From Deinococcales bacterium (GTDB taxonomy: Bacteria; Deinococcota; Deinococci; Deinococcales; JAAFIG01): DNA of 42,479 nucleotides. Every line of letters begins with the position of its first letter. The first letter of the stretch is position 1. Shown piece after piece: positions 1 through 42,479 of the stretch. The stretch lies in contig JANNVX010000070.1 of assembly GCA_031414595.1 (NCBI GenBank), forward strand, positions 1-42,479, in the 5' to 3' direction. The translations under genes and the position numbers were made by a program. Below the pieces are notes generated by a model that worked only from the letters and a program-made list of their open reading frames with translations, did not search any database and was not told the DNA's origin.

Positions 1-138
1 AGCAGGACAGACACAGGGGTCTGTCCCTACAAAATCCATAAAAATACGTCAGGTAGGGGCGGACCCCCGTGTCCGCCCTGTGACCAATTGTCTGTTTTTG
101 GTCTATTTGAAATCAGGAAGTTATTCTTGGACAGTTCC
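1..138 (-). mobile_element. MITE copy 1 (truncated by window edge), inverted relative to the copy at 810-1000; interrupts vapC
   Basis: Reverse complement of 1-138 matches 810-947 with one mismatch (pos. 61). The end GGACAGTTCC is followed by TAA (139-141). Confidence 0.85.
4..78. repeat. Pair of GTAG-family REP-like hairpins inside MITE copy 1
   Basis: GTAGGGGCGGACCCCCGTGTCCGCCC at 53-78 (+) and GTAGGGACAGACCCCTGTGTCTGTCCT at 30-4 (-). Each is a GTAG tetranucleotide followed by a GC-rich imperfect palindrome. Confidence 0.75.
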
Positions 139-374
139 TAAACAACGCTCCGAATCACTGGCTTCAAAAGTAAGCACCGTCATTTCTCCTGCCACTAAAC
201 CCGCCAGAAAAGCTCGAGCCGCATGAGAACCAACTTGGTTGCCAAGTAATCCACTTCGGGCAGAATCGTGGTTGGAACAAGAATCGGTTGACCAAAAAAG
301 GCTTTCATGGCTTCGTGATTTGGGTCACGGCGATTTAGAATAGCCAGTGCAGCATTGGTGTCCAGCAAAAACAT
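139..374 (-). pseudogene. vapC: VapC-type PIN-domain toxin, frameshifted and truncated by MITE
   Basis: ATG at 374 reads MFLLDTNAALAILNRRDPNHEAMKAFFGQPILVPTTILPEVDYLATK (PIN hhDTN and E motifs). It continues in another frame near 232 (GSHAARAFLAGLVAGEMTVLTFEASDSERCL) and then runs into the MITE. It lies directly after the antitoxin stop. Confidence 0.8.
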
Positions 375-581
375 TTAGCCTTCACCAAATAATAATTCTT
401 CATCCCGAAGCGATAAATCATCTATGCTCGAGTCGCCAGCCCCGTAAAAACTCCATGCTTTGGGTGTAATTTCCTTACGAATTGCCTCGAGAATCATTTC
501 TTCGAGAGTTAAACCCTGTTGCAAAGCCAGTTTATGCACGGCTGCTTCAAGATTTTTCTCGAGCGTAATTTGCATGGTCAT
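375..581 (-). CDS. vapB: VapB-like (RHH/CopG-type) antitoxin
   Basis: 68 aa, MQITLEKNLE...EMILEAIR with acidic tail GAGDSSIDDLSLRDEELL. Its stop abuts the PIN gene start, and a TACACT -10 box lies 6 nt upstream of the ATG. Confidence 0.7.
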   Translation of the reverse strand: MTMQITLEKNLEAAVHKLALQQGLTLEEMILEAIRKEITPKAWSFYGAGDSSIDDLSLRDEELLFGEG

Positions 582-616
582 GATGGTAGTGTACTGTATT
601 TTTGAAAATTCTAAAA

Positions 617-754
617 GTGGATAACACCGAGTACAACATCATAGATTTGTTACTCGAGCAGGGTGTGCTAGAAAATCGAATTGTGCTTGGTTTTCAAGCG
701 CCGTTTCAGAGACAGTTTTCTGGTTTTGCTTTGGGCAATGAAATTCAAGCCTGA
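617..754 (+). pseudogene. xisI: 3' fragment of an XisI-family gene
   Basis: Reads VDNTEYNIIDLLLEQGVLENRIVLGFQAPFQRQFSGFALGNEIQA*, matching the XisI C-terminus (compare EDGTDVGVVNELVRLGIPEDKIVLAY in 2328-2651). The N-terminal half is absent. Confidence 0.75.
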
Positions 755-758
755 GCCG

Positions 759-809
759 ATGCGCTCGAGTACGAAGTGAGATAAATTTTTATGTGCAATC
801 CTATGCTAA
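759..809 (+). repeat. Cassette-boundary repeat, copy A (split by MITE; continues at 1004-1015)
   Basis: atgcgctcgagtacgaagtgagataaatttttatgtgcaatcctatgctaa|acaccgaggc aligns with the copies at ~1845-1895 and ~2650-2710. Confidence 0.65.
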
Positions 810-1000
810 GGAACTGTCCAAGAATAACTTCCTGATTTCAAATAGACCAAAAACAGACAATTGGTCACAGGGCGGACACGGGGGTCTGCCCCTACCTGAC
901 GTATTTTTATGGATTTTGTAGGGACAGACCCCTGTGTCTGTCCTGCTAGGAAACAATGTTTCATCATTTCCAAATAGGGAAGTTATTTACGGACAAATCC
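810..1000 (+). mobile_element. 191-bp MITE with imperfect terminal inverted repeats, TAA target duplication and internal REP pair
   Basis: Left end GGAACTGTCCAAGAATAACTTCC vs reverse complement of right end GGATTTGTCCGTAAATAACTTCC (18/23). TAA at 807-809 and 1001-1003. REP hairpins at 870-895 (-) and 918-944 (+). No long ORF. Confidence 0.85.
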
Positions 1001-1068
1001 TAAACACCGAGGCGCAAGGCTTGATGAACCCGCTTGACAATCATAATCGTCTACCCTAAACTATACGA

Positions 1069-1474
1069 ATGCGGCTTTACCTTGCCCGACACCCAGACCA
1101 AATAACCAGCAAACACCCACGAATCATTGAAGATATGCTTGAGCTTTGCGAACACCATCAACTTGCTGTGAACGCCATGATTGGAATGCTCGAAGATTTA
1201 TTCGAGTTTAATCTTAAAACCAGATACGCTAAAAAGCTAACAGATTACCCGCTTTGGGAACTGAAAACCCGTTCTCGAGGCGGCGAAAAAGGCGGAGCAA
1301 GAGTCTATTTTTTTGTCGAAAATAACATTGCTTACATCTGCAATGCCGAAGTCAAAATAGGCAGCGAACCGAGCGAATACAAACTCGAGGAAGCGACCAT
1401 GCCCGTTAGGTGCGTTTTATGGTCAAGAAGCCCTAGAAATTCTAGTCGCCCATCGCGCTGGGAGGAACATATGA
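1069..1474 (+). pseudogene. RelE/ParE/HigB-like toxin, frameshifted near its 3' end by a 37-bp insertion and now read through into the antitoxin (ORF 1069-1842)
   Basis: KKLTDYPLWELKTRSRGGEKGGARVYFF is a RelE-fold signature. Removing 1395-1431 restores ...KLEEALEILVAHRAGRNI* with TGA (1472-1474) overlapping the antitoxin ATG. Confidence 0.7.
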
Positions 1475-1842
1475 ACCCACGAATCAAAGCCATGCTCGAG
1501 ACTTTTACCCCCGAAGAAATCCAAACTGGAATTCTTGAGAATAAACAAAGTAAAACAGTTCTAGCAACCACACCAAGCGAACTTGAACGTACTTTCAAAG
1601 CCGAACTTCTGGCTCGAAATGCCGGGACTTTACTACGCCAAGCACGGGAAGCTCGAGGCAAAAGCCTGAGTAAATTAGGTTTGGAGCTTGGCATTAGCAA
1701 AGGCAGGGTGCATCAGCGCGAACAAGCCAGTGCCAACTTAGAAATCAAAACAATCCTCGAGCAAGCCGATGCGCTCGAGTACGAAGTTGAATTGGTGTTA
1801 AGACCAAAGCAAGGTGGGCAGGAAATACGAGCGTTGTTGTAA
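1471..1842 (+). CDS. XRE/HigA-like HTH antitoxin
   Basis: GGAGGA Shine-Dalgarno before ATG 1471. LLRQAREARGKSLSKLGLELGISKGRVHQREQ is a Cro/XRE HTH. Confidence 0.8.
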   Translation: MNPRIKAMLETFTPEEIQTGILENKQSKTVLATTPSELERTFKAELLARNAGTLLRQAREARGKSLSKLGLELGISKGRVHQREQASANLEIKTILEQADALEYEVELVLRPKQGGQEIRALL

Positions 1843-1844
1843 AA

Positions 1845-1895
1845 TGCGCTTCAGTAAAGCATGGTAGGATTTTGGGTGCAGCCCTGTGCTAAACA
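1845..1895 (+). repeat. Cassette-boundary repeat, copy B
   Basis: atgcgcttcagtaaagcatggtaggattttgggtgcagccctgtgctaaacac, immediately after the antitoxin stop. Confidence 0.65.
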
Positions 1896-1911
1896 CGAGT
1901 AGAATACAACC

Positions 1912-2337
1912 ATGCCCGCTCGAGATAATTACCATGATGCCGTCCGAACAGCCCTCGAGAAAGAAGGTTGGAAAATTACCGCAGACCCATACTATCTTGG
2001 CTTTGGACGCGATGTGGTTGCCATAGACTTAGCGGCAGAACGCACTCTTGCGGCTGAACGGGATAACCAAAAAATTGCCGTCGAGATAAAGAGTTTTAAC
2101 AACCCGAGTATTCTTCACGATTTTCATGCTGCACTTGGGCAATACTTGAATTATCAAATTGGAGTGACCCCCTAAAGTGAGACCAGCGAACCGACTCGGG
2201 TTTTATACCTTGCTCTACCAAACACCACCTATGCCAGAATTCTCGAGCGTGACCTTGTACAAGCCGCTTTGAAACGTCACAATGTTCGATTATTGGTCTA
2301 CAATACTGAACAAGAGGTGATTGAACAATGGACATAG
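1912..2337 (+). pseudogene. xisH: XisH-family PD-(D/E)xK protein with in-frame TAA
   Basis: MPARDNYHDAVRTALEKEGWKITADP...IDLAAE...IAVEIKSF...ALGQYLNY. The same frame continues after TAA (2173-2175) with SEPTRVLYLALP...LLVYNTEQEVIEQWT* ending at 2337, overlapping xisI. Confidence 0.85.
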
Positions 2338-2651: not shown

Positions 2652-2710
2652 GCACTCGAGAATGCGTGGTAGAATTTTATGTGCAGCCATGTGCTAAACG
2701 CCAAGGCTCG
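2650..2710 (+). repeat. Cassette-boundary repeat, copy C
   Basis: aagcactcgagaatgcgtggtagaattttatgtgcagccatgtgctaaacgccaaggctcgag, immediately after the xisI stop. Confidence 0.65.
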
Positions 2711-2762
2711 AGATTAAAAGACTGACATTGGATACCGCTAGGTAATCTTGTATACTTAAGCT

Positions 2763-4103
2763 ATGTCGCAACCAAGTAACCGAAATCGCCGCAATGATAA
2801 TACTTCTATCAAGGGTATTTTTATTCGTGGTTTTAAGTCAATAAAAAATAAAATAGAAATTAGTTTCCAGCCATTGACTATTATTGCAGGTGCAAATAGT
2901 TCAGGAAAATCTTCTGCTTTTCAACCCTTATTACTTCTCAAACAGACCCTAGATTCACCTTTTGATCAGGGACCACTTCGTATAAATGGCGAAAATGCAA
3001 AATTTAGTGAATCTTCTCAACTTTTCTGGAAAGGTGGGCGCAAAATTGATACTGCTTCAGAATTTGAGATTGGATTTATTTTAGAAGGCTTAAACCCATC
3101 AATTATTTATGAAAAAGCAAAAGTAGGATTGGCGATTAAGTCTGTTGAGTTTACCAGTTCAGGAGAACGTAAGGAGATTAACGAAAAAACGAGTCAAGAA
3201 GAATTGGAAACAATTTTTACAGTACCAACAGAAATCAATAGTCGATTTCTAAAGAAAAATGAATATAAAATACACAGAAACATACAACGTAAGCGCTGGT
3301 TTTTGGATGTAACTTTACAATTTATAGGCAAAAATGATGTTCTGGAAACCCCTTTTTTAGAACCCTCTTTTTCATTTTTTAATGATATTCAAAACGAGGT
3401 AAACAAAATAATTCATTTGCCAGGATTGCGTGGTAATCCAGAGCGTTTCTATCCGGAAACAGCTATTGGGAAATCTTTTTCTGGTGTTTTTACCCCATAC
3501 TCAGCCAGTATAATTGCCAACTGGAAAGATGAAAGTTCTGGTTTACTAACTCAACTCGGTGATGATTTAAGAGAAATTGGTTTAACTTGGAAAGTTGATC
3601 CAAAAAGAATAGATGATACACGAGTAGAATTGCGTGTTGGAAGGTTGCCACAAGCAGCACATAGTGGGGCGAATGATTTAGTGAGTATTGCAGATGTTGG
3701 TGTTGGCGTTTCTCAGACACTACCTTTATTAGTTGCTTTGCTCGTTGCTGAAAAAGGACAAATTGTATATATAGAACAACCCGAAATACATTTGCATCCT
3801 CGAGCGCAAGTTGCCCTTGCACCTATCCTCATTCGGGCAGCAAATAGGGGTGTAATAACTGTGATTGAAACACATAGTAGCTTACTGTTAAAAAGTATTC
3901 AGGAACAGGTCGCTCTTGGCAAAATCATGCCTGAGAAAACCGTTCTGCATTGGTTTTCTCGAGATGAATATGGTGTGACGAATGTTCAAAGTGATTCGTT
4001 CTCTAAGGATGGTTCTTATGGAGATTGGCCCGAAGATTTTGGTGATATTGAGTTAGATATTGAAGACAGATTTTTACGTGCATCTTTTGGTCAAGAAGTA
4101 TGA
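2763..4103 (+). CDS. AAA_15/AAA_21-type ABC ATPase with DUF3696-like C-terminus
   Basis: Walker A GANSSGKS, signature-like DVGVGVSQ, Walker B VYIEQPEIHLHP, H-loop IETHS, and C-terminal DGSYGDWPEDF. AT-rich, with a TATACT box 6 nt upstream. Confidence 0.85.
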   Translation: MSQPSNRNRRNDNTSIKGIFIRGFKSIKNKIEISFQPLTIIAGANSSGKSSAFQPLLLLKQTLDSPFDQGPLRINGENAKFSESSQLFWKGGRKIDTASEFEIGFILEGLNPSIIYEKAKVGLAIKSVEFTSSGERKEINEKTSQEELETIFTVPTEINSRFLKKNEYKIHRNIQRKRWFLDVTLQFIGKNDVLETPFLEPSFSFFNDIQNEVNKIIHLPGLRGNPERFYPETAIGKSFSGVFTPYSASIIANWKDESSGLLTQLGDDLREIGLTWKVDPKRIDDTRVELRVGRLPQAAHSGANDLVSIADVGVGVSQTLPLLVALLVAEKGQIVYIEQPEIHLHPRAQVALAPILIRAANRGVITVIETHSSLLLKSIQEQVALGKIMPEKTVLHWFSRDEYGVTNVQSDSFSKDGSYGDWPEDFGDIELDIEDRFLRASFGQEV

Positions 4104-4636
4104 CCCATGTTGTTGTGGATGTTTCAGTGGCACGTTCTAGTGGCAATGCAACTGCCATTCATCCGAATGCTGTGGCTTGTCGAAGAGTTTTGGAGTCAAT
4201 TCGAGATCATCCAAGTATTTTTCTGATAATGACTAGCGAAATTTTGGAGGAATGGCTAAAAAACGACGTTGAATCTCAAAAAGTTTATGCGTCAAAATAT
4301 GCGATTAAATGGCTTTCTGCAATGCGTTCAAAACAAAAAATAAGGTTGATTAGTCCCATAAAAATAAATGAATTTGATCAATGCGCTCAGGATAATTTAG
4401 ATCCAATTTATCTCGCTGAACTTCGTAAAGATGCACACTTATTTTATGCAGCATTATCTTCGGATAAAAAAGTTATTTCGTGTGATAAAAAATGTTGGCA
4501 ATACGCAATTGCCATTGCTGACTGCTATCCAAGAATTCAAGGTTTACATTGGGTCAATCCCAATGATGTTTACTGCCTAGAGTGGATTTCGGAAGGTGCA
4601 AATGACAATCCATATTGGACACCTTCAAATCAGTAA
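4100..4636 (+). CDS. PIN-fold-like protein coupled to the ATPase
   Basis: ATGA overlap with the ATPase. VVVDVSV at the N-terminus, ILEEW, KDAHLFYAAL and VISCD give the PIN acidic pattern D..E..D..D. Confidence 0.6.
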   Translation: MTHVVVDVSVARSSGNATAIHPNAVACRRVLESIRDHPSIFLIMTSEILEEWLKNDVESQKVYASKYAIKWLSAMRSKQKIRLISPIKINEFDQCAQDNLDPIYLAELRKDAHLFYAALSSDKKVISCDKKCWQYAIAIADCYPRIQGLHWVNPNDVYCLEWISEGANDNPYWTPSNQ

Positions 4637-4641
4637 ATTTC

Positions 4642-4806
4642 ATGCTTAAATCTCTTTCTCTTTTCAGTGGTTGTGGCGGCTTGGATAGCGGTGTCTTCCA
4701 AGCTGGTTTCACGCCATTGGCAATGCAGAAGTAACTCCTCATGCCACCAAAACCTTGTCGCATTGGCTGGGGCAGGGTTATTCCACTGTTCTCGAGCTTG
4801 CTCGAG
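4642..4806 (+). pseudogene. 5' remnant of a C5 DNA cytosine methyltransferase
   Basis: MLKSLSLFSGCGGLDSGVFQAGF is motif I (FxGxGG). After a frameshift, EVTPHATKTL resembles motifs II/III. The remnant breaks off at two CTCGAG sites just before the spoIID stop. Confidence 0.75.
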
Positions 4807-4808
4807 GT

Positions 4809-5936: not shown

Positions 5937-6032
5937 ATGGCTCGAGTGTACCCGAAAAATGTCAAGGAAGATGGGTTTTTATCACACACTTGGTCAGCCC
6001 AGTCTCATCTTACGCGGTACAATTCTAAATCC

Positions 6033-6854: not shown

Positions 6855-6865
6855 GAAGAGATTCT

Positions 6866-6886: not shown

Positions 6887-6896
6887 CTTCTTAACC

Positions 6897-8860: not shown

Positions 8861-9304
8861 ATGAACATCATCACTGTCACCTTAGACCAACTCGAGCAAA
8901 TCGCCCCTTTGTTTGATGCCTACCGTGTTTTTTATGGGCAAAGTTCAGACCTAAACTCGGCTCAAGAATTTTTGCACCAGCGCTTGCTTTTGCGTGAGAC
9001 GGTGCTTTTTATGGCACTCGAAAACGAAACCCCACTTGGGTTTACGCAACTTTTTCCAAGTTTTACCAGTGTGGGAATGCAGCGACTTTGGATTCTGAAC
9101 GACCTGTACATTATCCTCGAAGCTCGAGGAAAGCGGATTGGCGAAAAACTGATTGAACGAGCCTTAGAACATGCCAAGCAGAGTGGGGCAACGGGCGTGG
9201 TTCTCGAGACGGCGCATACCAATGTATCGGGACAAAAACTTTATGAACGCATGGGTTTTATGCGCGAAGACCTCGAGTACCGCACGTACTTTAAGGCAGT
9301 TTAA
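8861..9304 (+). CDS. GNAT-family N-acetyltransferase
   Basis: LFDAYRVFY, WILNDLY..ARGKRIG and N..GQKLYERMGF. TATAAT lies upstream. Confidence 0.9.
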   Translation: MNIITVTLDQLEQIAPLFDAYRVFYGQSSDLNSAQEFLHQRLLLRETVLFMALENETPLGFTQLFPSFTSVGMQRLWILNDLYIILEARGKRIGEKLIERALEHAKQSGATGVVLETAHTNVSGQKLYERMGFMREDLEYRTYFKAV

Positions 9305-9599
9305 GCTAACCCATGCCGATTTCTAATATCATTGGGGTTTGGCTATCTCGAGGAAGCGCCTAGGTTTGACAAATTGCGGCACGATGGAATTAGGGTTGAT
9401 GCCAGTATCTTGCGTAAAATCAAGTTCAAAGTCATGCGAACCAAACCACAGAGGCATTGCGCGTACTTGTCAGTTCATGTGCGTTTCTCTGAGCCACTCA
9501 GAATCAACTCGAGTTTTGTTTAGTCGCTGATTCATGGATAAAAATTTCGTGTTTGGCTCGAGCCAGAATTGCACAAAGCAAGTTAATTTAAGAGGAAAA

Positions 9600-10358
9600 A
9601 TGCGTTCTTTAAGTCTGGCACTTGGTTTATGGCAAATTGGAATGGTGTTAGAAACCGACCTGATGACTTGGGTGGATACTCAGATTCTCGAGTCCGAGCA
9701 TCCGCACCCAGACCTACTCGAGTTTTCAATGGAAGGCGTATCCATTCTTAAGAACCCACCACGGGATTTTCAAACCCGCCCACTCGAGTTTTCGTTCCTC
9801 GAGCAATTCTCGGTGCGGGCGCACGGCTTAGACCTTAGTTCGGATGCTGCTGCCATGAGCCTTATTCGTTGGGTCTCGAGCAGATTTATTGAAGGGGACA
9901 TCACCCAGCCAGAAATTGATTTGGTACGCAAGTTAGAGCATTGGTATTGGGATGTGCAAGAAACCACTCGAGTCTTAGCCGAACTTCGTGCAGCCCTGCC
10001 AATGGATTTGCCAATTGCCAAAAGTTTACTGGCAGAAGTGCCTTATTTAAGGCTTCAACAAATCATTTGCCCTGATGTCTTGTACACCTTCGATGGTTTT
10101 CAAATGACCGATTTAACTTCTTTCTGGAGACATTATGTGAATGTTATAGATTCTGAGAGCATCGGTTATTTTGGACGCAATTTTAATGCGCTCTGGGATG
10201 CTCTATCGGCAGGTGGACCTGGCGCACCAGATTTCCCCTGTACTTTTAGGATCATCAATTCCAAAAAAGCCAATCAAAAACTCTTAGGTGCGTTTCTTGA
10301 AATATGCCATAAAATCAGTCCTGTACTCCTAAAAATTACTCTCGAGCCAATGAGGTAA
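9600..10358 (+). CDS. Immunity-like protein with C-terminal barstar domain
   Basis: C-terminal YTFDG...FW...YFGRNFNALWDALSAGGPG matches the barstar FGxNLDALWDxL motif. AGAGG precedes ATG 9600 (ORF open from 9534). Confidence 0.65.
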   Translation: MRSLSLALGLWQIGMVLETDLMTWVDTQILESEHPHPDLLEFSMEGVSILKNPPRDFQTRPLEFSFLEQFSVRAHGLDLSSDAAAMSLIRWVSSRFIEGDITQPEIDLVRKLEHWYWDVQETTRVLAELRAALPMDLPIAKSLLAEVPYLRLQQIICPDVLYTFDGFQMTDLTSFWRHYVNVIDSESIGYFGRNFNALWDALSAGGPGAPDFPCTFRIINSKKANQKLLGAFLEICHKISPVLLKITLEPMR

Positions 10359-10361
10359 ATC

Positions 10362-10859
10362 ATGTCCAATAGTATTTCTTATGATGCTAAGCCAAATCTC
10401 GAGTCGGTACACATGAACAATGGCTTAACCAGCGTGTTTGTTTCAGTGCTGGCATTGGCGGCATCCGACCTTGCCCGCACTGATGAACAGCGCCTTTGGG
10501 CAGCGTGGATAGCTTCGAGAGACCAAGGCATTTTTGGTGGTGGGATTGTCGGCTTTGATTTAACCCAAATGCCTTGGAAAACAGTCAGTCTCGAGGCGGA
10601 TAAAGATTTTTGGCTGCAAATTATTGTGGCTGCCAAACAAAAAACGGGCTGGGAGCGCCTAGATTACCAACCACGCGAAGACTGGGTGTTCTCGAGTTTG
10701 GATGGATTTGCCGTGCTAATACAAGCCTTTGAAGCAGCCCATGTTAATTCGGATGAAAAAAGAGACTGGACATATGATGCCCGACCAACAACTTTGGAGC
10801 GTTGCCCTAAACATTTGGTTTACCTTCATGCGTATGGTTGTGTGATTTGTAATGACTAA
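10362..10859 (+). CDS. Hypothetical protein with C-terminal Cys/His cluster
   Basis: 165-aa ORF with GAGGT RBS, ending CPKH...H..GCVIC. Confidence 0.7.
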   Translation: MSNSISYDAKPNLESVHMNNGLTSVFVSVLALAASDLARTDEQRLWAAWIASRDQGIFGGGIVGFDLTQMPWKTVSLEADKDFWLQIIVAAKQKTGWERLDYQPREDWVFSSLDGFAVLIQAFEAAHVNSDEKRDWTYDARPTTLERCPKHLVYLHAYGCVICND

Positions 10860-10875
10860 ACGCCATCATATCGTA

Positions 10876-11739
10876 TCACTCGAGTCGGAGCTTGGCGCGT
10901 AAAAACAAAAAGTCTGGGTGCGCTAAGGCTTCTAACCGCTCAAACAAATACGGTTCAGCCCAAGTTTTTATTTGACTCGAGTTGACCAGCCGAATCACGC
11001 ATTGCCCGGGGTATCCAGGTGCTTTTTGGCTTTTTAGGGCTGCTTCAAAGGCTTCGATGTTGCCAGCAAATAGCCTCGAGTCGTTGGGGTTGGTGGTCTC
11101 GAGGTAAACCTGCCAGAATTCTGTTTCTGAATATACGCGGCTGCAATCTATTCTGTACGTTTTTTGATTGCCCATTGCGGCTGTACCGTACATAAATTCT
11201 TGGCTTGGTGTACATTCTATGCCCGTGCATTTAGCTTGCTCGAGCGCTTCTTTTACTGTTTGGCTGATAAAATACTCGCGGTATAAGCCTTCAAGCATAA
11301 AAACTTGGCGTGTGCCAATGCGCTCTAAATCCAGTACCAGTTTTTTCATGGTTTCAATGCTCAGTAACCCATCGGCATACGTTTCAAAATCGGAATTGTT
11401 TGGGTCAATGCCTTTGATCGTCTCGAGGACATTTACCAAGTAATATGGGTGTTTTTGCTTGTCCCAAGTGGTCTGGACTGTGACTGCAAAAAACTCGAGG
11501 TGGTGCGGTTCTAACATCTCGAGAACGTTTTTCATCCGTTCAGTCACCACAAAGTATGTGCAACCCAGTAAATCGGTCAATTGCTTATTTTGGCGCGAAT
11601 GGTACAGCAGCAAATCACCAGACATAAATGGCAAAGGCTTCCCTTCGAGTAAATTTAGGCTGAGGTCATCCCGTACTTTCTCGCGTTCAATGTAGGCTTC
11701 GCCTTGGTTAAAACTGCATTGCAGATGATAATAATTCAT
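10876..11739 (-). CDS. Imm11/DUF1629-like immunity domain fused to a barstar-like domain
   Basis: FVVTERMKNVLE..LEFFAV..YYLVNVL..ID..S..ISQTVKEALEQAKCTG is Imm11-like. The C-terminus YRIDCSRVYSETEFWQVY..FAGNIEAF..PGYPGQC is paralogous to the barstar domain of 9600-10358. Confidence 0.7.
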   Translation of the reverse strand: MNYYHLQCSFNQGEAYIEREKVRDDLSLNLLEGKPLPFMSGDLLLYHSRQNKQLTDLLGCTYFVVTERMKNVLEMLEPHHLEFFAVTVQTTWDKQKHPYYLVNVLETIKGIDPNNSDFETYADGLLSIETMKKLVLDLERIGTRQVFMLEGLYREYFISQTVKEALEQAKCTGIECTPSQEFMYGTAAMGNQKTYRIDCSRVYSETEFWQVYLETTNPNDSRLFAGNIEAFEAALKSQKAPGYPGQCVIRLVNSSQIKTWAEPYLFERLEALAHPDFLFLRAKLRLE

Positions 11740-11742
11740 GTT

Positions 11743-12234
11743 TTATGCTCCTGTTGCCCAAGAAAAATACTGATAATCGGTTTTTGTTTTCAGCAAGACT
11801 TCAATATGATTCCACTTGCCAAAGTAAAGTACACTCGAGACTATATCTTCTGGGTTTAGTGCGGTGTGACTCGAGGGTAGATTATTAGTAAAAATCTGAT
11901 GCTCAGGTTCGGCAATACAAGCGTTAATAATCAGATTGATTTCCTTGAGCGTCTCGAGAATCGTGCTTTGGGTTTCGGCTTGCAGCAAATGCTTAAGTTG
12001 ATTTTGTTCAGTCAGTGCAAAATCTGTTTCGTCTAGTTCGTCATAATTCCATTCTTCAAAGTAACAAAGTTGCGCCATAAATAGCGTCGCAAAGGCTTCA
12101 ATATCCAAAATTTTCTCATCTCGAGGGAGCGTAAAAAAATAGGCACGGGTTAGCAGTTCGCTTTTGGTGCGGTACTCGGTTTTCGAGACCAATTCGAGTT
12201 TGGCTTTGCTGAGGTAATTGGACAGGTAGACCAT
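11743..12234 (-). CDS. Hypothetical protein (possibly immunity-type)
   Basis: Acidic ORF 3 nt upstream of the Imm11-like gene. Start placed at ATG 12234 behind a TATTAT box (ORF open from 12267). Confidence 0.6.
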   Translation of the reverse strand: MVYLSNYLSKAKLELVSKTEYRTKSELLTRAYFFTLPRDEKILDIEAFATLFMAQLCYFEEWNYDELDETDFALTEQNQLKHLLQAETQSTILETLKEINLIINACIAEPEHQIFTNNLPSSHTALNPEDIVSSVLYFGKWNHIEVLLKTKTDYQYFSWATGA

Positions 12235-12524
12235 AAAAAGATAATAGTACGAACCTCGAGCCGTCAATGCTCGAGGTTCGCAGTGGGTTGTGGGTCATGG
12301 CGTACAACAAGATAATCACTGCAAAGAGGGCAAGAATAACAATAAAAACTCGAGTTAGATGCTTTTGTGCGTGAACTGATGCGTCAACACAACACTGACC
12401 TCGAGCCTTACCAGAGTTTATGGCGTTTAGCAGTTGGTTATATGTTGCGGTTTGAGCAAGTTCATGGCTTAGATGTTTTTCCAGAATAAAACGCAATAAT
12501 TCTGAACTTGTGCCAAAGAAAGAC

Positions 12525-12615
12525 AGTGGTGCAAAAGGCGTGGTACTCGAGACTACCCATAAAAACGTATTGGCGCGAAGACCTCGAGTACCGCATCTAT
12601 TTTTAGGCTGTATGA
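12525..12615 (+). pseudogene. Degenerate duplicate of the 3' end of the GNAT gene 8861-9304
   Basis: Reads SGAKGVVLETTHKNV..REDLEYRIYF*AV* vs SGATGVVLETAHTNV...REDLEYRTYFKAV*. 12573-12595 is identical to 9262-9284. Confidence 0.85.
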
Positions 12616-14309: not shown

Positions 14310-14554
14310 CTCAATTTGACCCAAACGGTTTCTTGGTAGAACTTAAAGACTACGTGACCTTAAAAGATGGTCGTCCAACTGTAGTGGAAAAAGTACCGTT
14401 TTGTATTGACCCGAAAACTCAAGAAGAATTTTTACACGTATCTGTTTACGAGGAACTTTGGAAGATACTCCACTCGTCAACTCCGCCAATTCGTCATATC
14501 ACTGGCGATGTTTTTCAAATGCCAAGTTTTGAAAGTGAGTTAAAAAATGCTTAA
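14306..14554 (+). CDS. YgiT-type zinc-finger-like antitoxin (Cys pairs degenerate)
   Basis: [22 protein letters not shown]...[21 protein letters not shown] coupling to the DUF4258 remnant, and overlap with the carA start. Confidence 0.6.
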
Positions 14555-15728
14555 ACGTGAACGGGCAGTCTTAGCCCTCGAGGATGGAACAGTTTACCGT
14601 GGCTACGCGGCTGGTAAGCGCGGCGAAACCATCGGAGAAGTGGTTTTTAACACCAGCATGACTGGCTACCAAGAAATCATGACCGACCCTTCGTACAACG
14701 GTCAGATTGTCTGTATGACCTATCCGCACATTGGGAATTACGGCATTACGGTCTACGATATGGAAAGCAATAAACCCTATGTGCGTGGTTTTATTGCTCG
14801 AGAATTCACCAAGAACCATAGCAATTTTAGAGCCACCGATGCTTTAGAGAGCTTCACCAAGCAGCATGGGGTAGTGAGTATCGAAGGCATAGACACAAGG
14901 GCTTTGGTGCGTCGTTTGCGTGAAGGTGGCGTGGTCAAAGGCGTGGTTTCGCACCGTTCCTATACCCACCCAGAAGACCCATTTGGTGAATTTAGCCCAG
15001 AAGAAGAATCGCGCTTAGTGGCTCGAGCCAAATTTCATGATGATATTGATGGGCGCGACATGATGCCCGAGGTCACCACCCAAATTCCGTATGTTTATCC
15101 AACGCTCGAGAAGGGCAAGCGAATTGTCTTTATGGACTTTGGAATTAAACACATGATTATTAAAAAACTGGCGGGTATCGGTGCAGAAGTGATAGTTGTT
15201 CCAGCCAGTACCACCCCAGCCGCGATTATGGCACTACACCCTCAAGGTTTATTTTTAAGCAACGGTCCCGGCGACCCAAGCGCCCCAGCCTATACCCATG
15301 ATACGGCTTGGAAATTACTTGGTTTACTGCCAACCTTTGGGATTTGCCTCGGGCATCAGATTCTTGGACTTGCTGTGGGTGGCAAGACTTTTAAGATGAA
15401 ATACGGGCATCGGGGCGGGAATCAACCGGTCAAGAACCTGATTAACGGTAAAGTCGAAATCACCAGTCAAAATCATGGGTATGCCGTAGATGCCGAAACG
15501 GTCAAAGACCATTTTATAACTACCCATATTAACTTAAACGACAATTCACTCGAGGGCATGGCGCACTTGCGCTATCCAGTTTTTAGTGTCCAGTACCACC
15601 CAGAAGCCAGCCCGGGTCCGCACGATAGTTTCTACTTATTCCAGCGCTTTATCGAAGAGGTCAATGTTTTTAGTGGCTCGAGTGGGCAACCCGTCGAGAA
15701 ATCTGCCAGTGGATTATTTGGAATCTAA
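14547..15728 (+). CDS. carA: Carbamoyl-phosphate synthase small subunit
   Basis: [38 protein letters not shown] and [12 protein letters not shown]. Confidence 0.98.
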
Positions 15729-24496: not shown

Positions 24497-24526
24497 CTCG
24501 AGGATTATGAAATGGGAATCCTCGAG
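24497..24526 (-). terminator. Intercistronic hairpin after the substrate-binding gene
   Basis: Perfect 10-bp inverted repeat CTCGAGGATT-N10-AATCCTCGAG. There is no clear U-tract, so it may stabilise mRNA rather than terminate. Confidence 0.5.
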
Positions 24527-24537
24527 CAGAATAAATT

Positions 24538-25566
24538 TTAACGTGGCAATGGGAAAATTTCGTTTGTCCAGCGTTTAATCAAAGGTTCACGGACAGTTGG
24601 ATTGCCCCATTTTTTAGCATCGAGCGTGATTAACTTAAAGTCCTTTGGATTTGGGGTGTCATCATCCACTGGGGTTTTGATGTTGCTTGGTAAGCTGTAT
24701 GCCCCTGTTTTTGGTCCTATGCTCTGCGCGGCTGGACTGACTGCCCAATCCATAAAGGCTTTGGCGTTGTCTATGTTGCGTGTGCCTTTAATCAGGCTTA
24801 AGCCACCAATTTCATAACCTGTGCCTTCGCAAGGCGAAACAATCTGAATCGGGAAACCCTGTTTTTTGAACTCAACCATGTCGTGCATGAACTGAATCCC
24901 AATGGCTGCACTGCCATTGCCAAGCGCTACCCTTGGCGCAACCCCACTGCGGGTGTACTCCGAGACATTTGGGTGCATTTTTGCCATCAAATCAAAGGCT
25001 TTATCTTCGCCCATTAAAGTAATCAAGGTGGTCATAAAGGTATAGGCTGTGCCACTGGTGTTTGGGTTGGCAATCTGAATCTGTCCTTTATAGGCAGGTT
25101 TGGTCAGGTCAGACCAACATTTAAGTGGGGGTAAATTCTTGGCTTTGAAGACATTGGGGTTAATGCCAATGCCCAGAATCCCTTGGTAAATCGGCACATA
25201 ACTTAAACCCACAGCAAAACGCAAATCGCGGCGCAAGTTGTCGTATTCTTTAACTTTATAAAACGTGGTTAAGCCGTTGCTCCAGGCTTCGTAGTGCGGG
25301 TCGCCAGTTCCACCAAACCACGCATCGAAGGTTGGATTGGCTTTTTCGGCACGAATCCGCGCTAAACCTTCGGCGGTAGACAAACGCACAAAGTTGAGTT
25401 TTATTCCAGTGTCCTTTTGAAAGGCAGGACCAAGTGCTTCACACCACGGAAGGGTGACACTACACAGCACATTGACTTGTTTTTGTTGGGCGCTGACGAT
25501 GCCAGCCGCCGCCGCCAGTGCAATTGCGCCCAAAACGAACCCACGACGAACTATTTTTTTACGCAT
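24538..25566 (-). CDS. ABC substrate-binding protein (Fe3+/AfuA sugar-phosphate type)
   Basis: RRGF Tat-like signal, DAWFGGTGDPH, ANPNTSGTAY and PCEGTGYEIG. AAGGAG RBS. Confidence 0.92.
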   Translation of the reverse strand: MRKKIVRRGFVLGAIALAAAAGIVSAQQKQVNVLCSVTLPWCEALGPAFQKDTGIKLNFVRLSTAEGLARIRAEKANPTFDAWFGGTGDPHYEAWSNGLTTFYKVKEYDNLRRDLRFAVGLSYVPIYQGILGIGINPNVFKAKNLPPLKCWSDLTKPAYKGQIQIANPNTSGTAYTFMTTLITLMGEDKAFDLMAKMHPNVSEYTRSGVAPRVALGNGSAAIGIQFMHDMVEFKKQGFPIQIVSPCEGTGYEIGGLSLIKGTRNIDNAKAFMDWAVSPAAQSIGPKTGAYSLPSNIKTPVDDDTPNPKDFKLITLDAKKWGNPTVREPLIKRWTNEIFPLPR

Positions 25567-25674
25567 ACATTTCTCCTTGAGGAAGTTTCATTCTAACCAT
25601 TTGAACAACTCGGATGTGTTTGCAAACTACAAAGATTTTACCGATTCTCGAGACAAAGCCCCTATACTAAAGTT

Positions 25675-29893: not shown

Positions 29894-29899
29894 CGAGCC

Positions 29900-34283: not shown

Positions 34284-34341
34284 TCACAGTAAATTTACAT
34301 TATTTCACTGCAAAAAATAATTTTGGGTGTATAACCAAGGG

Positions 34342-36543
34342 ATGAAACGATTCTCGGTGGTGCTGGCTGGAATTTTTGCAATGGCATGTGGCAGTATTTC
34401 CAATTCGGCTATACCCAATGGCATATCACCAATTGTATTTGTGACTCAAGTACCGATTGCCCCAGACTTTACAACCATTGGTTCGACTTTTGGCAATCAT
34501 TTAGCCAGCATGGAAGCTGCTGCTCGAGGCGGCGATTTATATATTCGCTATCCCGACGGCAAACTGAAGAACTTAACTGCAACGGCGGGTTTTGGTCTGG
34601 CAAACGGTTTACAAGGTGCAAAAGCCATTGCCGTGCGAGACCCACATGTTTATTGGGATGGCAAAAAGGTCTTGTTTAGCATGGTGGTTGGAGCGCCGAG
34701 TAAGCAGTACGAGTACAACGATTATTTTTGGCAAATCTATGAAGTCACTAATCTCGAGGCAAACCAAACCCCAGTCATTACAAAAATTGCCAATCAACCC
34801 AACTACAATAATGTTTCGCCGATTTACGGCACAGATGACCGAATCATTTTTACCTCTGACCGCCCAAGGGATAACTCGAGTCACCTCTATCCGCAGCGCG
34901 ACGAGTACGAATCGGCGTTTACCAACACTGGACTGTGGAGCTTAGAGCGAAGCAGTGGCAACTTAAAACTCCTCAATCATGCCCCAAGTGGCAATTTCAC
35001 GCCAACTTTAGATAGTTTTGGGCGAATTATTTTTACTCAGTGGGACCACTTAAAACGCGATCAGCAAGCCGATGCCGATAAATATGCAGGTGGCTCGAGT
35101 GGCACATTTAATTTTGCTTCGGAAGCTGCCAATGCTGCTAAGTCAAGCAGCCGTGCCGAAGTTTTCCCAGAGCCTCGAGTTGACCAAGAAATCGCTGGCA
35201 CAAACCTCAATAAACACGACTTCAATCAGTTTTTTCCGTGGATGATTCTCGAGGATGGCACAGAATCCGAAACCCTCAACCATGCTGGACGGCACGAACT
35301 GATGAGCGGTGATGCCAGAGGTTATATTGAACCAAGTCTGACCGACGACAGCGCCTTGCAAACTTTTAGCCCACCGAATTTAAGCAAAAATACCAATTAC
35401 ATCGAAAACATGTTCCAAATTAAAGAAGACCCAAGTCGTTTAGGAACTTACATTGGGATTAACGCCCCAGAATTTAATACCCATGCTTCTGGACAAATTG
35501 TCAGTTTGAACGGTGCGCCAAACGTAGCCGTCAATGACATGAAAATCAGCTATATCACGGCTCGAGCCACAGCGAATCCGTCACCAGACAACGCGGCAGC
35601 GAATCCAGAACACTCGGGGATGTACCGCGACCCATTGCCGCTTAAAAGTGGCGATTTGATTGTTGCCCACACCTCGGAAACTCGAGCCGATAAGTCTGGC
35701 AACAGCATGACCGCTTCGCGCTATGCCTACCGCCTGAAAACCACAAAAAAACTTGCCAATGGTCTTTACAGTGCCGACCAAGCCTTGACCACTGGCATCA
35801 GCAAAACCCTTGAATTCTGGAGTCCAGATGCCAAAGTCACCTATTCTGGCAACCTTTGGGAATTGCAACCTGTAGAACTGACTGCCCGCCCCCGTCCAGC
35901 CAAACGCACCGAACCACTGCCCAGTCTCGAGCAGCAAGTTCTTAATCAAGCTGGGGTCAACGAAACCGCCCTAAAAACCTACCTGACCAACAATAACCTT
36001 GCCTTAGCCGTGGTTCGCAATGTCACAACAAGGGATGCCGCCGATAAACAACAGCCTTTTCACTTAAAAGTTCCGGGCGGCGTACAGAGCTTAGGAGCAG
36101 ATTACAGTGCTGGTCAAAAAATTTATGAAGTGGCAAAATTGCAATTCTTCCAAGCCGATTTAATTCGTGGTTATGGTGGCACAGCCGACCCACGCGAAGG
36201 ACGACGGGTACTTGCCCAAGTGCTACACGACACCAAGGCAATCTCGAGCAACACTGCCTTTGCCGATTTCACCCCAAGTAACGGCAGTGTGACCGTCTCG
36301 AGTGATGGCAGTGCCGCCGCCTTTGTACCAGCTAAACGCGCCCTTAGCTGGCAACTGACCGATGCGGCTGGAACTGGAGTGGTGCGCGAGCGGTACTGGG
36401 TGACTTTTCAACCCGGAGAAGTGCGGGTTTGTACCAGTTGCCATGGCTTAAATGACAAAGACCAAGCTGGAAAAGGTGTGCCAAACAATGCCCCCAAAGC
36501 CCTGCTCGAGTTGTTAAAAAAATGGAAAATTGCTAATCCTTAG
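34342..36543 (+). CDS. Lipoprotein, TolB/WD40-like propeller plus HZS-alpha-like C-terminal region with CxxCH
   Basis: Lipobox-like AMAC, VRDP...DGKKVLFSM, DDRIIFTSDRP and ERYWVTFQPGEVRVCTSCHG. Confidence 0.75.
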   Translation: MKRFSVVLAGIFAMACGSISNSAIPNGISPIVFVTQVPIAPDFTTIGSTFGNHLASMEAAARGGDLYIRYPDGKLKNLTATAGFGLANGLQGAKAIAVRDPHVYWDGKKVLFSMVVGAPSKQYEYNDYFWQIYEVTNLEANQTPVITKIANQPNYNNVSPIYGTDDRIIFTSDRPRDNSSHLYPQRDEYESAFTNTGLWSLERSSGNLKLLNHAPSGNFTPTLDSFGRIIFTQWDHLKRDQQADADKYAGGSSGTFNFASEAANAAKSSSRAEVFPEPRVDQEIAGTNLNKHDFNQFFPWMILEDGTESETLNHAGRHELMSGDARGYIEPSLTDDSALQTFSPPNLSKNTNYIENMFQIKEDPSRLGTYIGINAPEFNTHASGQIVSLNGAPNVAVNDMKISYITARATANPSPDNAAANPEHSGMYRDPLPLKSGDLIVAHTSETRADKSGNSMTASRYAYRLKTTKKLANGLYSADQALTTGISKTLEFWSPDAKVTYSGNLWELQPVELTARPRPAKRTEPLPSLEQQVLNQAGVNETALKTYLTNNNLALAVVRNVTTRDAADKQQPFHLKVPGGVQSLGADYSAGQKIYEVAKLQFFQADLIRGYGGTADPREGRRVLAQVLHDTKAISSNTAFADFTPSNGSVTVSSDGSAAAFVPAKRALSWQLTDAAGTGVVRERYWVTFQPGEVRVCTSCHGLNDKDQAGKGVPNNAPKALLELLKKWKIANP

Positions 36544-38521: not shown

Positions 38522-38539
38522 AAACATATTTTAGCACGT

Positions 38540-40831: not shown

Positions 40832-42210
40832 AGATTTACCTCGGCAAAGAATTTAAGCATGAGTTGCTCGAGCATGGCTTTTCGGTAGGCAGCACTGGCT
40901 CGGTGGTCGTCAAGTGGCGTACCAGAATTTGCCATTAGTCTAGCGGCGGCTTGGGCATTCTCGAGATTCCAGATTTGACCAATTAAAAACCTTTCAGTCT
41001 CGAGCGCCCGAATTGGTGTGGCAGCCACGCCACCAAGTCCAATTTTAATCTCTTTCACCACATTATTCTCGAGCCGTAGGGCAATGCCAACCGATACGCT
41101 GCTGATGTCATCCATTTTGCGCTTGGAGATTTTATAGAATTTGGCGGTTTGGGCTAGTGGCAAAGGAATCCGAATAGATTTAATGATTTCGTTAGGTTGG
41201 CGCACGGTTTTTCGATAGCCCGTAAAGTATAACTCTAACGGCACAATGCGTTGACCGCTTTTTGAGACCAGCACCACACTTGCACCCAATGCCAATAAAA
41301 CTGGGGGCGAATCGCCAATTGGTGAGGCTGTACCAATGTTACCGCCAAGCGTGGCACTGTTGCGAATTAAGCGCGAGGCAAACATTGGAAACCATTCTTG
41401 TAAAAGTGGAATCTTATCACCTAGCCGATGCTCGAGTTCGGACAAGGTTAAGGCTGCACCGAGTTCAACAAAATCTGGATTCCACTCCACTTGACGCAGT
41501 TCTGGCAAATGGTCAATCGCAATCTGCACCGTCGCCCTCGAGAAGCGCAAATTGATCTCAACCCCCCAATCTGTTCCACCCGCTACAAGTTTGGCGCTTG
41601 GGTTCTTCTCGAGCAGATTAAGTGCTTCCTCGAGATTGGCTGGACGATAAAAAACCGCATTCTCTGATTCCAGCACCACGGCTCGAGCGTCTGGGGCTGG
41701 CTGGTTTTGACGCAACCACAACACATCGCTGACTTTTGGGAAACCCAAACCAAAAGCTGCATCCTTAATCGAACGATAACCCGTACAGCGACATAAATTC
41801 CCAGACAATGCCTCAAGGTCAAAGTTTGTGCGGTTTGGACGGTAATACTCATCCGTCATACTCGAGATAAACCCCGGAGTGCAGTACCCACACTGCGAAC
41901 CGCCAGTACCCACCATTGCTGTTTGGACTGGATGCAAATTGTCAGGTGTGCCAAGTCCTTCGGCGGTGATAATCTCTTGACCGCCCAAACCCGCCATTAA
42001 GACCAAACAAGCATTGACCGAAGTCAGTCTCGAGCCACTGCCAGCCGCTTTGGTTAAAAGCACCGCACAAGCGCCGCATTCGCCTTCGGCGCAACCTTCT
42101 TTACAACCCGCTAAACCCGAATCTCGCAGCCAATTGAGTAAGGTCGTGTGCGGTTCACAATTTGTAGCGATGGTGGGCTTGCCGTTCAAGACAAGGTTAA
42201 TTTCTGACAT
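40828..42210 (-). CDS. xdhA: Xanthine dehydrogenase small subunit (2Fe-2S + FAD)
   Basis: KEGCAEGECGAC, QCGYCTPG, GNLCRCTGY, AGGTD, IRNSATLGGN and KISKRKMDDIS. Confidence 0.97.
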   Translation of the reverse strand: MSEINLVLNGKPTIATNCEPHTTLLNWLRDSGLAGCKEGCAEGECGACAVLLTKAAGSGSRLTSVNACLVLMAGLGGQEIITAEGLGTPDNLHPVQTAMVGTGGSQCGYCTPGFISSMTDEYYRPNRTNFDLEALSGNLCRCTGYRSIKDAAFGLGFPKVSDVLWLRQNQPAPDARAVVLESENAVFYRPANLEEALNLLEKNPSAKLVAGGTDWGVEINLRFSRATVQIAIDHLPELRQVEWNPDFVELGAALTLSELEHRLGDKIPLLQEWFPMFASRLIRNSATLGGNIGTASPIGDSPPVLLALGASVVLVSKSGQRIVPLELYFTGYRKTVRQPNEIIKSIRIPLPLAQTAKFYKISKRKMDDISSVSVGIALRLENNVVKEIKIGLGGVAATPIRALETERFLIGQIWNLENAQAAARLMANSGTPLDDHRASAAYRKAMLEQLMLKFFAEVNL

Positions 42211-42319
42211 GAGCTAATTTACAATAGAATTCGTGAACTTTGGTAGTTATGAATCACCGTTTAGAGCCTCCGAAAGAATAGAATATCATCGTTAAGTGTT
42301 TCCCGTGTAAACTACAAGA

Positions 42320-42479
42320 ATGTGTAGACCAAGATTTATCAAATTAAGCCCAGAAGAAGATAGCCAATTACGCCAACTCGAGCAAGCCCACGGAATTCAC
42401 CCTAAAGTTCGTCTGAGAGCCAGTATTCTACGTTTAAGTAATCAGGGTTTTACAGTGGCGCAACTGGTTCGACATTTTG
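42320..42479 (+). mobile_element. 5' part of a probable IS630-family transposase (N-terminal HTH), runs off the window
   Basis: MCRPRFIKLSPEEDSQLRQLEQAHGIHPKVRLRASILRLSNQGFTVAQLVRHF matches the L..EE...L...R.RA.IL.L...G pattern of IS630 N-termini. TAAACT lies 6 nt upstream. Confidence 0.7.

Follow-up and report, generated by a model that had tools for sequence, protein, structure and literature searches.

The question raised by contig JANNVX010000070.1 of a Deinococcales bacterium (GenBank assembly GCA_031414595.1) is why one six-base palindrome, CTCGAG, recurs along its entire length, and whether this amounts to a highly iterated palindrome (HIP) of the kind known from cyanobacteria as HIP1 (GCGATCGC). 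The window analyzed here is the whole of that contig, 42,479 bases long (contig C70 of the assembly that we call G000). It holds 254 exact copies of CTCGAG, one per 167 bp, the first at position 213 and the last at 42377. In 100 dinucleotide-preserving shuffles of the window the mean was 5.03 copies and the maximum was 10, and none of the shuffles attained 254. Successive 5-kb bins held 25, 36, 37, 28, 29, 24, 32, 27, and 16 copies (the final bin spans 2.5 kb), and because the counts were high in every bin, the whole window is affected. A first-pass annotation had called CTCGAG highly iterated across the window after counting, by eye, about 31 copies between 9301 and 12600; the position list gave exactly 31 sites in 9301..12600, about one per 106 bp, and the wider claim was borne out by the shuffles and by every bin. 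As argued below, an uncultured Deinococcales family has in CTCGAG a genuine highly iterated palindrome.

The source genome comprises 4,488,778 bases in 120 contigs, is 94% complete, has a GC content of 47.2%, and contains no 16S rRNA gene in its assembly. CTCGAG occurred 23,235 times (5.18 per kb, one per 193 bp) and was the commonest of all hexamers; the hexamers ranked 2 to 7 were one-base extensions of it. At orders 0 (972 copies expected), 1, 2, and 3, the observed-to-expected ratio (O/E) was 24, 44, 18, and 3.8, respectively; values at orders 3 and 4 come out too low, since the sub-words on which they rest are built from the motif. The expected rate of one copy per 4 to 5 kb given in the annotation agrees with the order-0 expectation of 972 in 4.49 Mb. 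The runner-up among six-base palindromes had an O/E of 2.15, and none exceeded this value.

One explanation would be that codon or amino acid usage, a family of dispersed repeats, or an artifact of assembly or cloning produced the enrichment as a by-product, and 59% of the coding CTCGAG sites in the genome do lie in the frame that reads Leu-Glu. Genes were called by a simple greedy open reading frame (ORF) procedure, and DNA classed as non-coding may hold small genes and RNAs; the set comprised 3,957 ORFs of at least 90 amino acids, covering 88.6% of the genome, with 41 genes in the window. Of the 254 exact sites in 1..42479, 216 fell inside called genes: 121 in the Leu-Glu frame (CTC-GAG), 36 as xCT-CGA-Gxx, and 59 as xxC-TCG-AGx, with 99 in plus-strand and 117 in minus-strand genes. 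The remaining 38 lay in 5,171 bp of non-coding DNA (7.3 per kb). Synonymous codons were permuted within genes, which keeps the protein and the per-gene codon usage, including usage inflated by the motif itself. Five hundred such shuffles of the window gave frame means of 13.3, 4.0, and 3.3 and at most 35 sites in total, versus 216 to 217 observed. Genome-wide, about 12,112 to 12,124, 4,011 to 4,020, and 4,311 to 4,324 coding sites were found in the three frames (in the same order), versus 1,318, 411, and 279 after the synonymous shuffle, an excess of 9.2-, 9.8-, and 15.5-fold; shuffling of codon order left 532, 241, and 163. Density was 5.14 per kb in coding and 5.35 per kb in non-coding DNA, and the 517 kb of non-coding DNA held 2,772 sites versus 95, 70, and 188 expected at orders 0, 1, and 2 (about 29-fold at order 0).

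These results indicated that the enrichment is neither a protein effect nor a codon effect. The presence of CTCGAG in three frames, on both coding strands, and in intergenic DNA, which the annotation had reported, was confirmed by the frame and strand counts. The annotation had also named two outcomes that would count against it, loss of the enrichment under an amino-acid- and codon-preserving shuffle and confinement to the Leu-Glu frame. What was found instead was an excess of 9- to 16-fold above the codon-preserving null in every frame, with the two other frames at least as enriched as Leu-Glu and with non-coding DNA as dense as coding DNA, and the same figures stand against a by-product.

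CTCGAG was counted in 41 whole genomes (genome sizes rounded), of which 19, in five genera, belong to the family of the window, f1. All 19 carried 12,028 to 35,442 copies (4.3 to 6.8 per kb). Most f1 genomes are incomplete metagenome-assembled genomes (MAGs; 57 to 94% complete), and one, G013, is a single 5.1-Mb contig; that 19 genomes share the trait, one of them as a single contig, speaks against an artifact of assembly or cloning. Six genomes of the Deinococcus-like family f3, all from genus g7, carried 128 to 942 copies (0.03 to 0.27 per kb), families f2, f4, and f5 had 0.6 to 2.9 copies per kb, and loci from named Deinococcus species held 0 to 2 sites per 11 to 21 kb. At the carA locus, identity to the window was 82 to 99% for MAGs of uncultured Deinococcales bacteria and 72 to 76% for named Deinococcus species. 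In 20- to 120-kb samples of five other f1 genomes (GC, 52 to 62%), CTCGAG was the top hexamer each time, with an O/E of 11 to 26 and a non-coding density of 2.9 to 7.3 per kb, and the GC content of loci from other CTCGAG-rich MAGs reached down to 45%. The reversed word, GAGCTC, was nearly absent from all 19 f1 genomes (0 to 568 copies). The phenomenon that the annotation had likened to HIP1 outside the cyanobacteria is thus located in uncultured Deinococcales (Deinococcota), with the motif enriched family-wide.

Non-f1 genomes with a moderate excess had their sites mainly in the Leu-Glu frame, for example, 80, 14, and 10 sites by frame in G021 and 29, 1, and 9 in G031; a by-product explanation can also draw on these two genomes, as the 4- to 6-fold excess in other Deinococcota is largely of this kind. 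One genome outside the family, G019 (family f2, genus g6; 99% complete; 58% GC), was intermediate, with about 1.55 to 1.6 copies per kb, an O/E of 5.1, and 1.8 copies per kb of non-coding DNA, and it may represent a weaker or earlier stage of the same phenomenon. This genome strongly avoids GGCC and GAGCTC. Viral contigs with triple-site clusters, among the matches listed, were mostly 64 to 72% GC and also rich in GAGCTC, and they are therefore not of the f1 type.

The proteome of G000 bears the mark of the motif. Leu-Glu occurred 20,207 times versus 9,064 expected (O/E, 2.23) and was the second most overrepresented dipeptide; 60% of these pairs were written CTCGAG, though CTC makes up 15.5% of Leu codons and GAG 33% of Glu codons. 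The O/E of Leu-Glu was 2.2 to 2.5 in the other f1 samples, 1.08 to 1.12 in two g7 genomes, and 1.2 in G019. The motif has thus doubled the Leu-Glu dipeptide in the proteome, and CTCGAG is a striking example of a DNA-level force rewriting proteins.

The motif consists of exactly six bases. Flanking positions -10 to -1 and +1 to +10 were near background, and the top 8-mers of G000 were all CTCGAG plus arbitrary flanks. A dispersed repeat family, such as repetitive extragenic palindromes or miniature inverted-repeat transposable elements, was rejected because the flanks carry no conserved sequence beyond the core, and this lack of an extended consensus also counts against the by-product explanation. 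The sole flank effect in the genome was a mild shortage of C before and of G after the site. The sixteen NCTCGAGN octamers were all frequent except CCTCGAGG, which accounted for 178 of the 23,235 sites, about 4-fold fewer than independent flanks predict. The window held 3 copies of CCTCGAGG, and its shortage was seen in the other f1 samples as well (3 to 21 copies); no such shortage was seen in the Thermus-like genome G021 (19 of 118 sites).

Spacing was near-Poisson, with a coefficient of variation of 0.99 for the gaps and Fano factors of 0.84, 1.01, and 1.9 at scales of 200 bp, 1 kb, and 10 kb, respectively. Pairs of sites less than about 20 bp apart were scarce, and the pair correlation was flat beyond that distance. 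At a start-to-start distance of 7 (CTCGAG-N-CTCGAG) there was a spike of 101 pairs, compared to 17 to 54 at distances of 8 to 14. Across genes and the 400 bp on either side of them, density stayed level at about 5 per kb, apart from a slight drop over the first 25 bp of genes and a slight rise (6 to 7 per kb) around stop codons. The longest site-free gap in the genome measured 4.9 kb, and the long gaps were mostly low in GC (32 to 42%), which fits recently imported DNA.

The fate of individual sites was followed in 10 to 18 kb of the window per pair, from one region of about 20 kb, aligned to five congeneric genomes at 93 to 76% identity. CTCGAG was intact at 77 of 85, 104 of 117, 59 of 77, 66 of 83, and 37 of 56 sites (0.66 to 0.91). 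In the same five pairs, the values were 0.69, 0.68, 0.44, 0.32, and 0.23 for all hexamers and 0.58, 0.62, 0.35, 0.24, and 0.14 for other palindromes. Compared to all hexamers, the binomial P values ranged from 3e-6 to 5e-19, and the implied loss rate was 3.1- to 5.0-fold lower. The excess held in each frame, and non-coding sites were kept at 13 of 13, 7 of 9, and 4 of 6 positions versus controls of 0.69, 0.26, and 0.12. When the control of Xu et al. was repeated, all 20 comparisons showed the codons CTC, GAG, CGA, and TCG to be better conserved within the motif than elsewhere. This codon-in-motif test, together with positional conservation above that of the controls, supports the annotation's statement that some process at the DNA level builds or keeps the sites.

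Versions of the motif with one mismatch behaved differently from perfect sites. They were conserved at 0.13 to 0.57, below average hexamers (0.23 to 0.69), and 3 to 27% of them were perfect sites in the relative; the annotation had proposed that orthologue alignments be searched for one-off sites converting to CTCGAG, and such sites do read CTCGAG in the relative at this rate and are unstable. One-off words were not depleted overall in G000, with an O/E of 1.06 to 1.2 for transition neighbors and 0.16 to 0.7 for transversion neighbors. The ratio of perfect to one-off words exceeded the composition expectation 36-fold genome-wide and 35-fold in non-coding DNA, and in mutation-fixation balance this ratio corresponds to a scaled bias, S, of ln 35, about 3.6. 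That sites align at orthologous positions is a further point against the by-product explanation, which is refuted by the shuffles, the flanks, and the genome counts and retains practically no probability.

We consider it close to certain that the phenomenon and a DNA-level fixation bias are real. The DNA itself is subject to a directional, site-specific force that is as strong between genes as within them; this force keeps sites and rapidly turns over their one-mismatch versions, and it has made CTCGAG the commonest hexamer at 4 to 7 sites per kb across a GC range of 45 to 62%. The bias is independent of neighboring sites beyond 20 bp, is stable across five genera, and is slow enough that fresh imports are without the motif.

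In many respects CTCGAG is the counterpart of HIP1. Both are short palindromes, each the most overrepresented oligomer of its genomes at an enrichment of tens of fold, and both are found in all frames, between genes, and lineage-wide. Judging from the available excerpts of Xu et al. 2018 (PMC5861425), the two are also alike in that they are positionally conserved above controls and in that codons are better kept inside the motif, and they differ in that the one-mismatch versions of HIP1 (HIP1*) are conserved whereas CTCGAG one-offs are unstable. HIP1 has eight bases and CTCGAG six, at 67% GC, and the hosts are cyanobacteria and Deinococcota, respectively. In the portions of Elhai 2015 (PMC4390886) at hand, HIP1 occurs at 300 to 2,700 per Mb, compared to 4.3 to 6.8 per kb for CTCGAG, and a cognate methyltransferase is present in every HIP genome, whereas none was found lineage-wide in f1. 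The effect of CTCGAG on Leu-Glu in the proteome is large (O/E, 2.2). HIP1 itself is essentially absent from G000, in which its core, CGATCG, occurs 3 times.

The same available portions of Elhai 2015 (PMC4390886) describe alternate cyanobacterial HIPs, namely, GGCGCC in Calothrix PCC 7103, GGGATCCC in Synechococcus JA strains, rCCGGy, and GCsGC, which show that a HIP can be another palindrome, including a hexamer (GGCGCC), and can replace HIP1. These are described there as 75 to 100% GC, present at about 1,000 to 2,000 per Mb in one or a few strains, and each accompanied by a matching methyltransferase. Unlike them, CTCGAG is family-wide over five genera and several times denser. CTCGAG therefore behaves like a HIP in its abundance, frame independence, and conservation, and it departs from the cyanobacterial pattern in its host, in GC-richness, and in lacking conserved one-offs.

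An exact, mismatch-intolerant six-base palindrome that carries no flank information points to a dimeric DNA protein of the restriction or modification type as its reader. On this basis, a methylation-linked repair ratchet (Elhai's HIP1 model, or a process like very-short-patch repair) could operate, in which marked sites are restored and near-sites converted without benefit to the cell. Its target would be a classic type II palindrome, and site restoration would account for the conservation of positions as well as for the rapid turnover of one-offs. The genome is, moreover, rich in the relevant enzymes, with about 26 DNA methyltransferase genes (5 for 5-methylcytosine [m5C], about 8 N6_N4, 1 D12, and about 12 gamma-class or type I/IIG). 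It also avoids other palindromes to an extreme degree: GGCC occurred 152 times versus 13,951 expected, GATC was depleted to 0.14-fold, and counts were 0 for GGGCCC, 2 for TGCGCA, 3 each for CGATCG, GACGTC, GGCGCC, and CGCGCG, 5 for CGTACG, and 6 each for GAGCTC and GTGCAC. The window alone held 4 copies of GGCC and none of GAGCTC, GGGCCC, CGATCG, or TGCGCA. The methyltransferase genes and this avoidance together indicate that restriction-modification (R-M) strongly shapes the genome, although the sets of avoided words vary among f1 genomes. Cyanobacterial genomes with HIP1 also avoid many palindromes, as G000 does. Also in favor of such a ratchet, a cognate methyltransferase accompanies HIP in every HIP-bearing cyanobacterium, as far as the available portions of Elhai 2015 (PMC4390886) show, and predicted gamma-class and D12-class enzymes, whose specificity is not readable from sequence, were present in 5 of 5 f1 genomes checked.

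The search for a common enzyme argued otherwise. Searches for m5C methyltransferases came up empty in G010 (91% complete) and G002, as did those for N6_N4 enzymes in G013 (the single 5.1-Mb contig), G012, G014, and G002; among f1 genomes, MT-A70 was found in G013 only. Cross-BLAST of all the methylase loci from the family searches of G006, G010, and G013 yielded no methylase orthogroup common to these three genomes and G000; the cross-search against G000 also took in four G011 loci. A TaqI_C-type pair was present in G000 at locus L097 (G000:C4:28804-32136), where two ORFs (1-1986 and 1986-2726, with a one-base overlap) encode a 661-residue methylase with N-terminal MerR/HTH_17, Eco57I, and TaqI_C matches and a 246-residue type II enzyme (PADLOC REase_II; E, 7e-68). 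This TaqI_C methyltransferase (C4:28798-30789) was rejected as the CTCGAG methylase because just 3 of the 19 f1 genomes have it and its partner is a type II nuclease, and a PDB sequence search with the G000 enzyme returned generic gamma-class similarity only. A second TaqI_C match, on contig C89, was discarded as a shortened PglX/MmeI-like piece on a 2.1-kb contig.

The XhoI R-M system shares the recognition sequence CTCGAG, and a nuclease with an adjacent N6_N4 methylase exists in the phylum, but none was found in f1. Of 364 Deinococcota genomes, 7 had the XhoI-family nuclease (PF04555); 5 of these 7 are among the 23 genomes of family f4, and none is among the 19 f1 or the 125 f3 genomes. The f4 genes (L172, at G021:C1:73699-77256, and L173) are convergent with a 340-residue N6_N4 methylase, and this partner had no orthologue in G000, where only local, motif-level matches were found (28 to 50% over 58 to 133 residues). 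Genome G021, the one sampled of the five f4 genomes that carry the XhoI-family gene, still has about 2 copies of CTCGAG per kb and hence shows no avoidance of the site. Avoidance is the usual fate of a restriction target, and in f3 CTCGAG conforms to it (0.03 to 0.27 per kb), whereas in f1 it is enriched. The orphan methyltransferase of XhoI/PaeR7I or TaqI type that the annotation had suggested was therefore looked for, and none was found as a family-wide gene.

Two further attempts to place a methylase also failed. A position beside an MqnC-like gene, considered as a conserved methylase position, proved instead to be occupied by unrelated R-M genes. The gene after the MqnC/CofH-like radical-SAM gene is a D12 methylase in L187 (G013), an N6_N4 methylase with an EcoO109I-type nuclease in L195 (G011), and of neither methylase type in G000 (C100:55695-56819), and from these gene contents the position looks like an insertion hotspot for R-M genes. 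The CTCGAG density of methylase genes was likewise tried as a discriminator of old from new genes and failed, as the resident R-M genes of G000 were almost all at host-like density.

In Escherichia coli, Dcm together with Vsr very-short-patch repair raises the frequency of CCWGG and lowers that of its T:G neighbors, although the effect is small. The likeness to CTCGAG is that a site-specific repair bias shifts oligomer frequencies genome-wide. The difference is that Vsr was found in 0 of 19 f1 genomes, that no m5C methylase is universal, and that the deamination neighbors CTTGAG and CTCAAG are not depleted (O/E, 1.06). The MutH family, too, was found among the 41 genomes only in G000 and G005, and there beside a D12 methylase. 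We rank a methylation-linked ratchet second among the explanations and consider it unlikely.

GATC is the mark used by MutH in E. coli mismatch repair, and CTCGAG could in principle be a strand-discrimination or nicking mark for post-replicative mismatch repair that replaces a GATC restricted in this genome. One site per 193 bp is close to the chance density of a 4-mer (one per 256 bp), and the depletion of GATC in G000 fits this suggestion. Yet GATC was not depleted in samples of G009, G010, G011, and G013 (O/E, 0.87 to 2.43), which are equally rich in CTCGAG, and a coverage function predicts regular spacing, which was not seen. Moreover, the MutH-family gene, confined to 2 of 19 f1 genomes, is likely part of a GATC restriction system: at G000:C1:26904-28231, a D12-class adenine methylase directly adjoins a MutH/Sau3AI-family gene. 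Judged by its gene content, this pair is likely a GATC restriction system, which would explain the depletion of GATC in G000. A role as a repair mark is therefore very unlikely.

A nucleoid or chromosome-organizing function has been proposed for HIP1 (Xu et al. 2018, PMC5861425, in the excerpts available). In the present case, CTCGAG would be the selected binding site of such a protein, with each site weakly beneficial for compaction, segregation, or domain structure. The HIP1-like conservation in coding and non-coding DNA and the uniform density irrespective of gene features are consistent with this, and the exclusion of pairs closer than about 20 bp matches the footprint size of a protein. 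Nucleoid proteins, however, rarely need an exact hexamer with zero mismatch tolerance, and one-offs are unstable here. The spacing was near-Poisson rather than regular, and no protein emerged as a candidate. For the six largest contigs, which are short (112 to 305 kb) and make this a weak test, periodograms gave best periods of 9 to 56 kb that differed from contig to contig, with 2 of 6 beating 95% of shuffles, and no consistent periodicity was seen in the range of 10 to 90 kb that would be expected of a HIP. We regard a nucleoid site as improbable.

The features of the bias led us to rank first, tentatively, a reading in which CTCGAG may serve as a "self" tag in DNA uptake, homologous recombination, or both. 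CTCGAG-bearing alleles would be preferentially taken up or retained, and the resulting molecular drive would act additively at each site, fitting the near-Poisson spacing. Indeed, additive accumulation that is independent of neighbors fits molecular drive better than a coverage or spacing function. Such a drive would be akin to that of the uptake sequences of Haemophilus and Neisseria. The uptake signal sequences (USS) of Pasteurellaceae and the DNA uptake sequences (DUS) of Neisseriaceae are family-specific and are spread through genes and spacers by molecular drive; DNA that has only recently been acquired has few of them, they skew the peptide content, and they persist at orthologous positions. 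The drive would also resemble the role proposed for HIP1, for which a function as a self signal in uptake or recombination has been put forward (PMC13756078; bioRxiv 2024.09.10.611283, in the parts available). As the trait is uniform in five genera and no mobile methyltransferase is common to all, the reader is more likely a vertically inherited core gene. The fuller proposal, that CTCGAG is the signal of a vertically inherited DNA-transaction system, serving as a self-tag for uptake or recombination without a dedicated methyltransferase and overriding protein coding at about 10,000 positions, is more conjectural still.

Several observations weigh against a self-tag. No reader protein was found by the methylase, XhoI, Vsr, and MutH searches of the f1 genomes, most of which are incomplete MAGs, which limits results on gene absence, and non-orthologous methyltransferases may share CTCGAG specificity. 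ComEC (PF03772), present in 18 of 19 f1 genomes, was also present in 22 of 22 outgroup genomes without hyper-abundance of the motif; it is necessary for uptake but not discriminating, and competence genes therefore do not explain the family specificity. USS and DUS have 9 to 12 bases and an extended consensus, are non-palindromic, and occur about once per kb, whereas CTCGAG is a six-base palindrome without flanks at about 5 per kb. A six-base signal gives little discrimination per site, and an exact palindrome of the type II kind is more in keeping with a methyltransferase or a nuclease than with any of the uptake receptors known. Conservation and fast turnover of one-offs are equally predicted by site-restoring biased repair or by weak selection, and the conservation results rest on about 20 kb of one window. 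Finally, a pure model with S = 3.6 predicts 9.6-fold slower loss, which exceeds the 3- to 5-fold observed, so that either gains account for part of the bias or the model oversimplifies.

Several features of the window illustrate these points at the level of single genes. The carA gene (carbamoyl-phosphate synthase small chain, by Pfam; 14547..15728, plus strand) has 6 CTCGAG sites, of which 4, 3, and 2 were position-matched in codon alignments with three other CTCGAG-rich Deinococcales MAGs; none of the sites was present in carA of two named Deinococcus species. At alignment column 567, four CTCGAG-rich genomes have Leu-Glu, and four outgroups have LR, LR, FE, and FR. The orthologue-level comparison of Leu-Glu covers two genes, and the carA case is an anecdote.

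A CTCGAG-poor, low-GC island at 2707..4796 (plus strand) contains gaps of 1,092 and 833 bp (GC, 35% and 39%) and only two sites, at 3799 and 3958. It includes a gene for an NsnB/AriA-like AAA_15/AAA_21 ATPase (2763-4103, plus strand; Pfam and PADLOC) and, overlapping this gene, a 178-residue partner ORF without a family match (4100-4636, plus strand). Judged by composition and gene content, the island is probably imported DNA that has yet to acquire the motif, and probably a two-gene defense module. Among the site-free gaps of the window, the one at 24521..25652 (minus strand) is the longest (1,126 bp); it has a normal composition (46.7% GC) and spans a solute-binding-protein gene (24538-25566, minus strand; Pfam); by a rough Poisson estimate, such a gap would not be unusual among 253 gaps. 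Elsewhere in the window, a 738-residue protein encoded at 34327-36543 (plus strand) has as its only Pfam match HZS_alpha, the middle domain of the hydrazine synthase alpha subunit (E, 2e-11), and its gene adjoins amidohydrolase and xanthine-dehydrogenase-type genes.

No published account of CTCGAG as an iterated palindrome, or as overrepresented in Deinococcota, was found in the literature searched, which included few subscription journals and no supplements, and the string CTCGAG is absent from the text of Elhai 2015 (PMC4390886). For three decades HIP1 has lacked an explanation and has been regarded as peculiar to cyanobacteria, and CTCGAG provides an independent, denser case in another phylum. 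This case weighs against a general cause in the form of one inherited methyltransferase or of Vsr-type repair. With its GC range of 45 to 62% beside a sister family that is nearly without the word, f1 offers a natural comparison for finding the machinery, and any gene that is in all 19 f1 genomes and absent from relatives is a candidate reader. In practical terms, absence of the motif flags imported DNA in f1 genomes, and its density will bias k-mer binning, codon-usage, and restriction-based analyses of these freshwater-sediment bacteria. If the self-tag reading were true, no other known self-recognition sequence would be as short or as dense as CTCGAG, the HIP phenomenon would have arisen a second time independently, and HIPs would be a general bacterial strategy rather than a cyanobacterial oddity.

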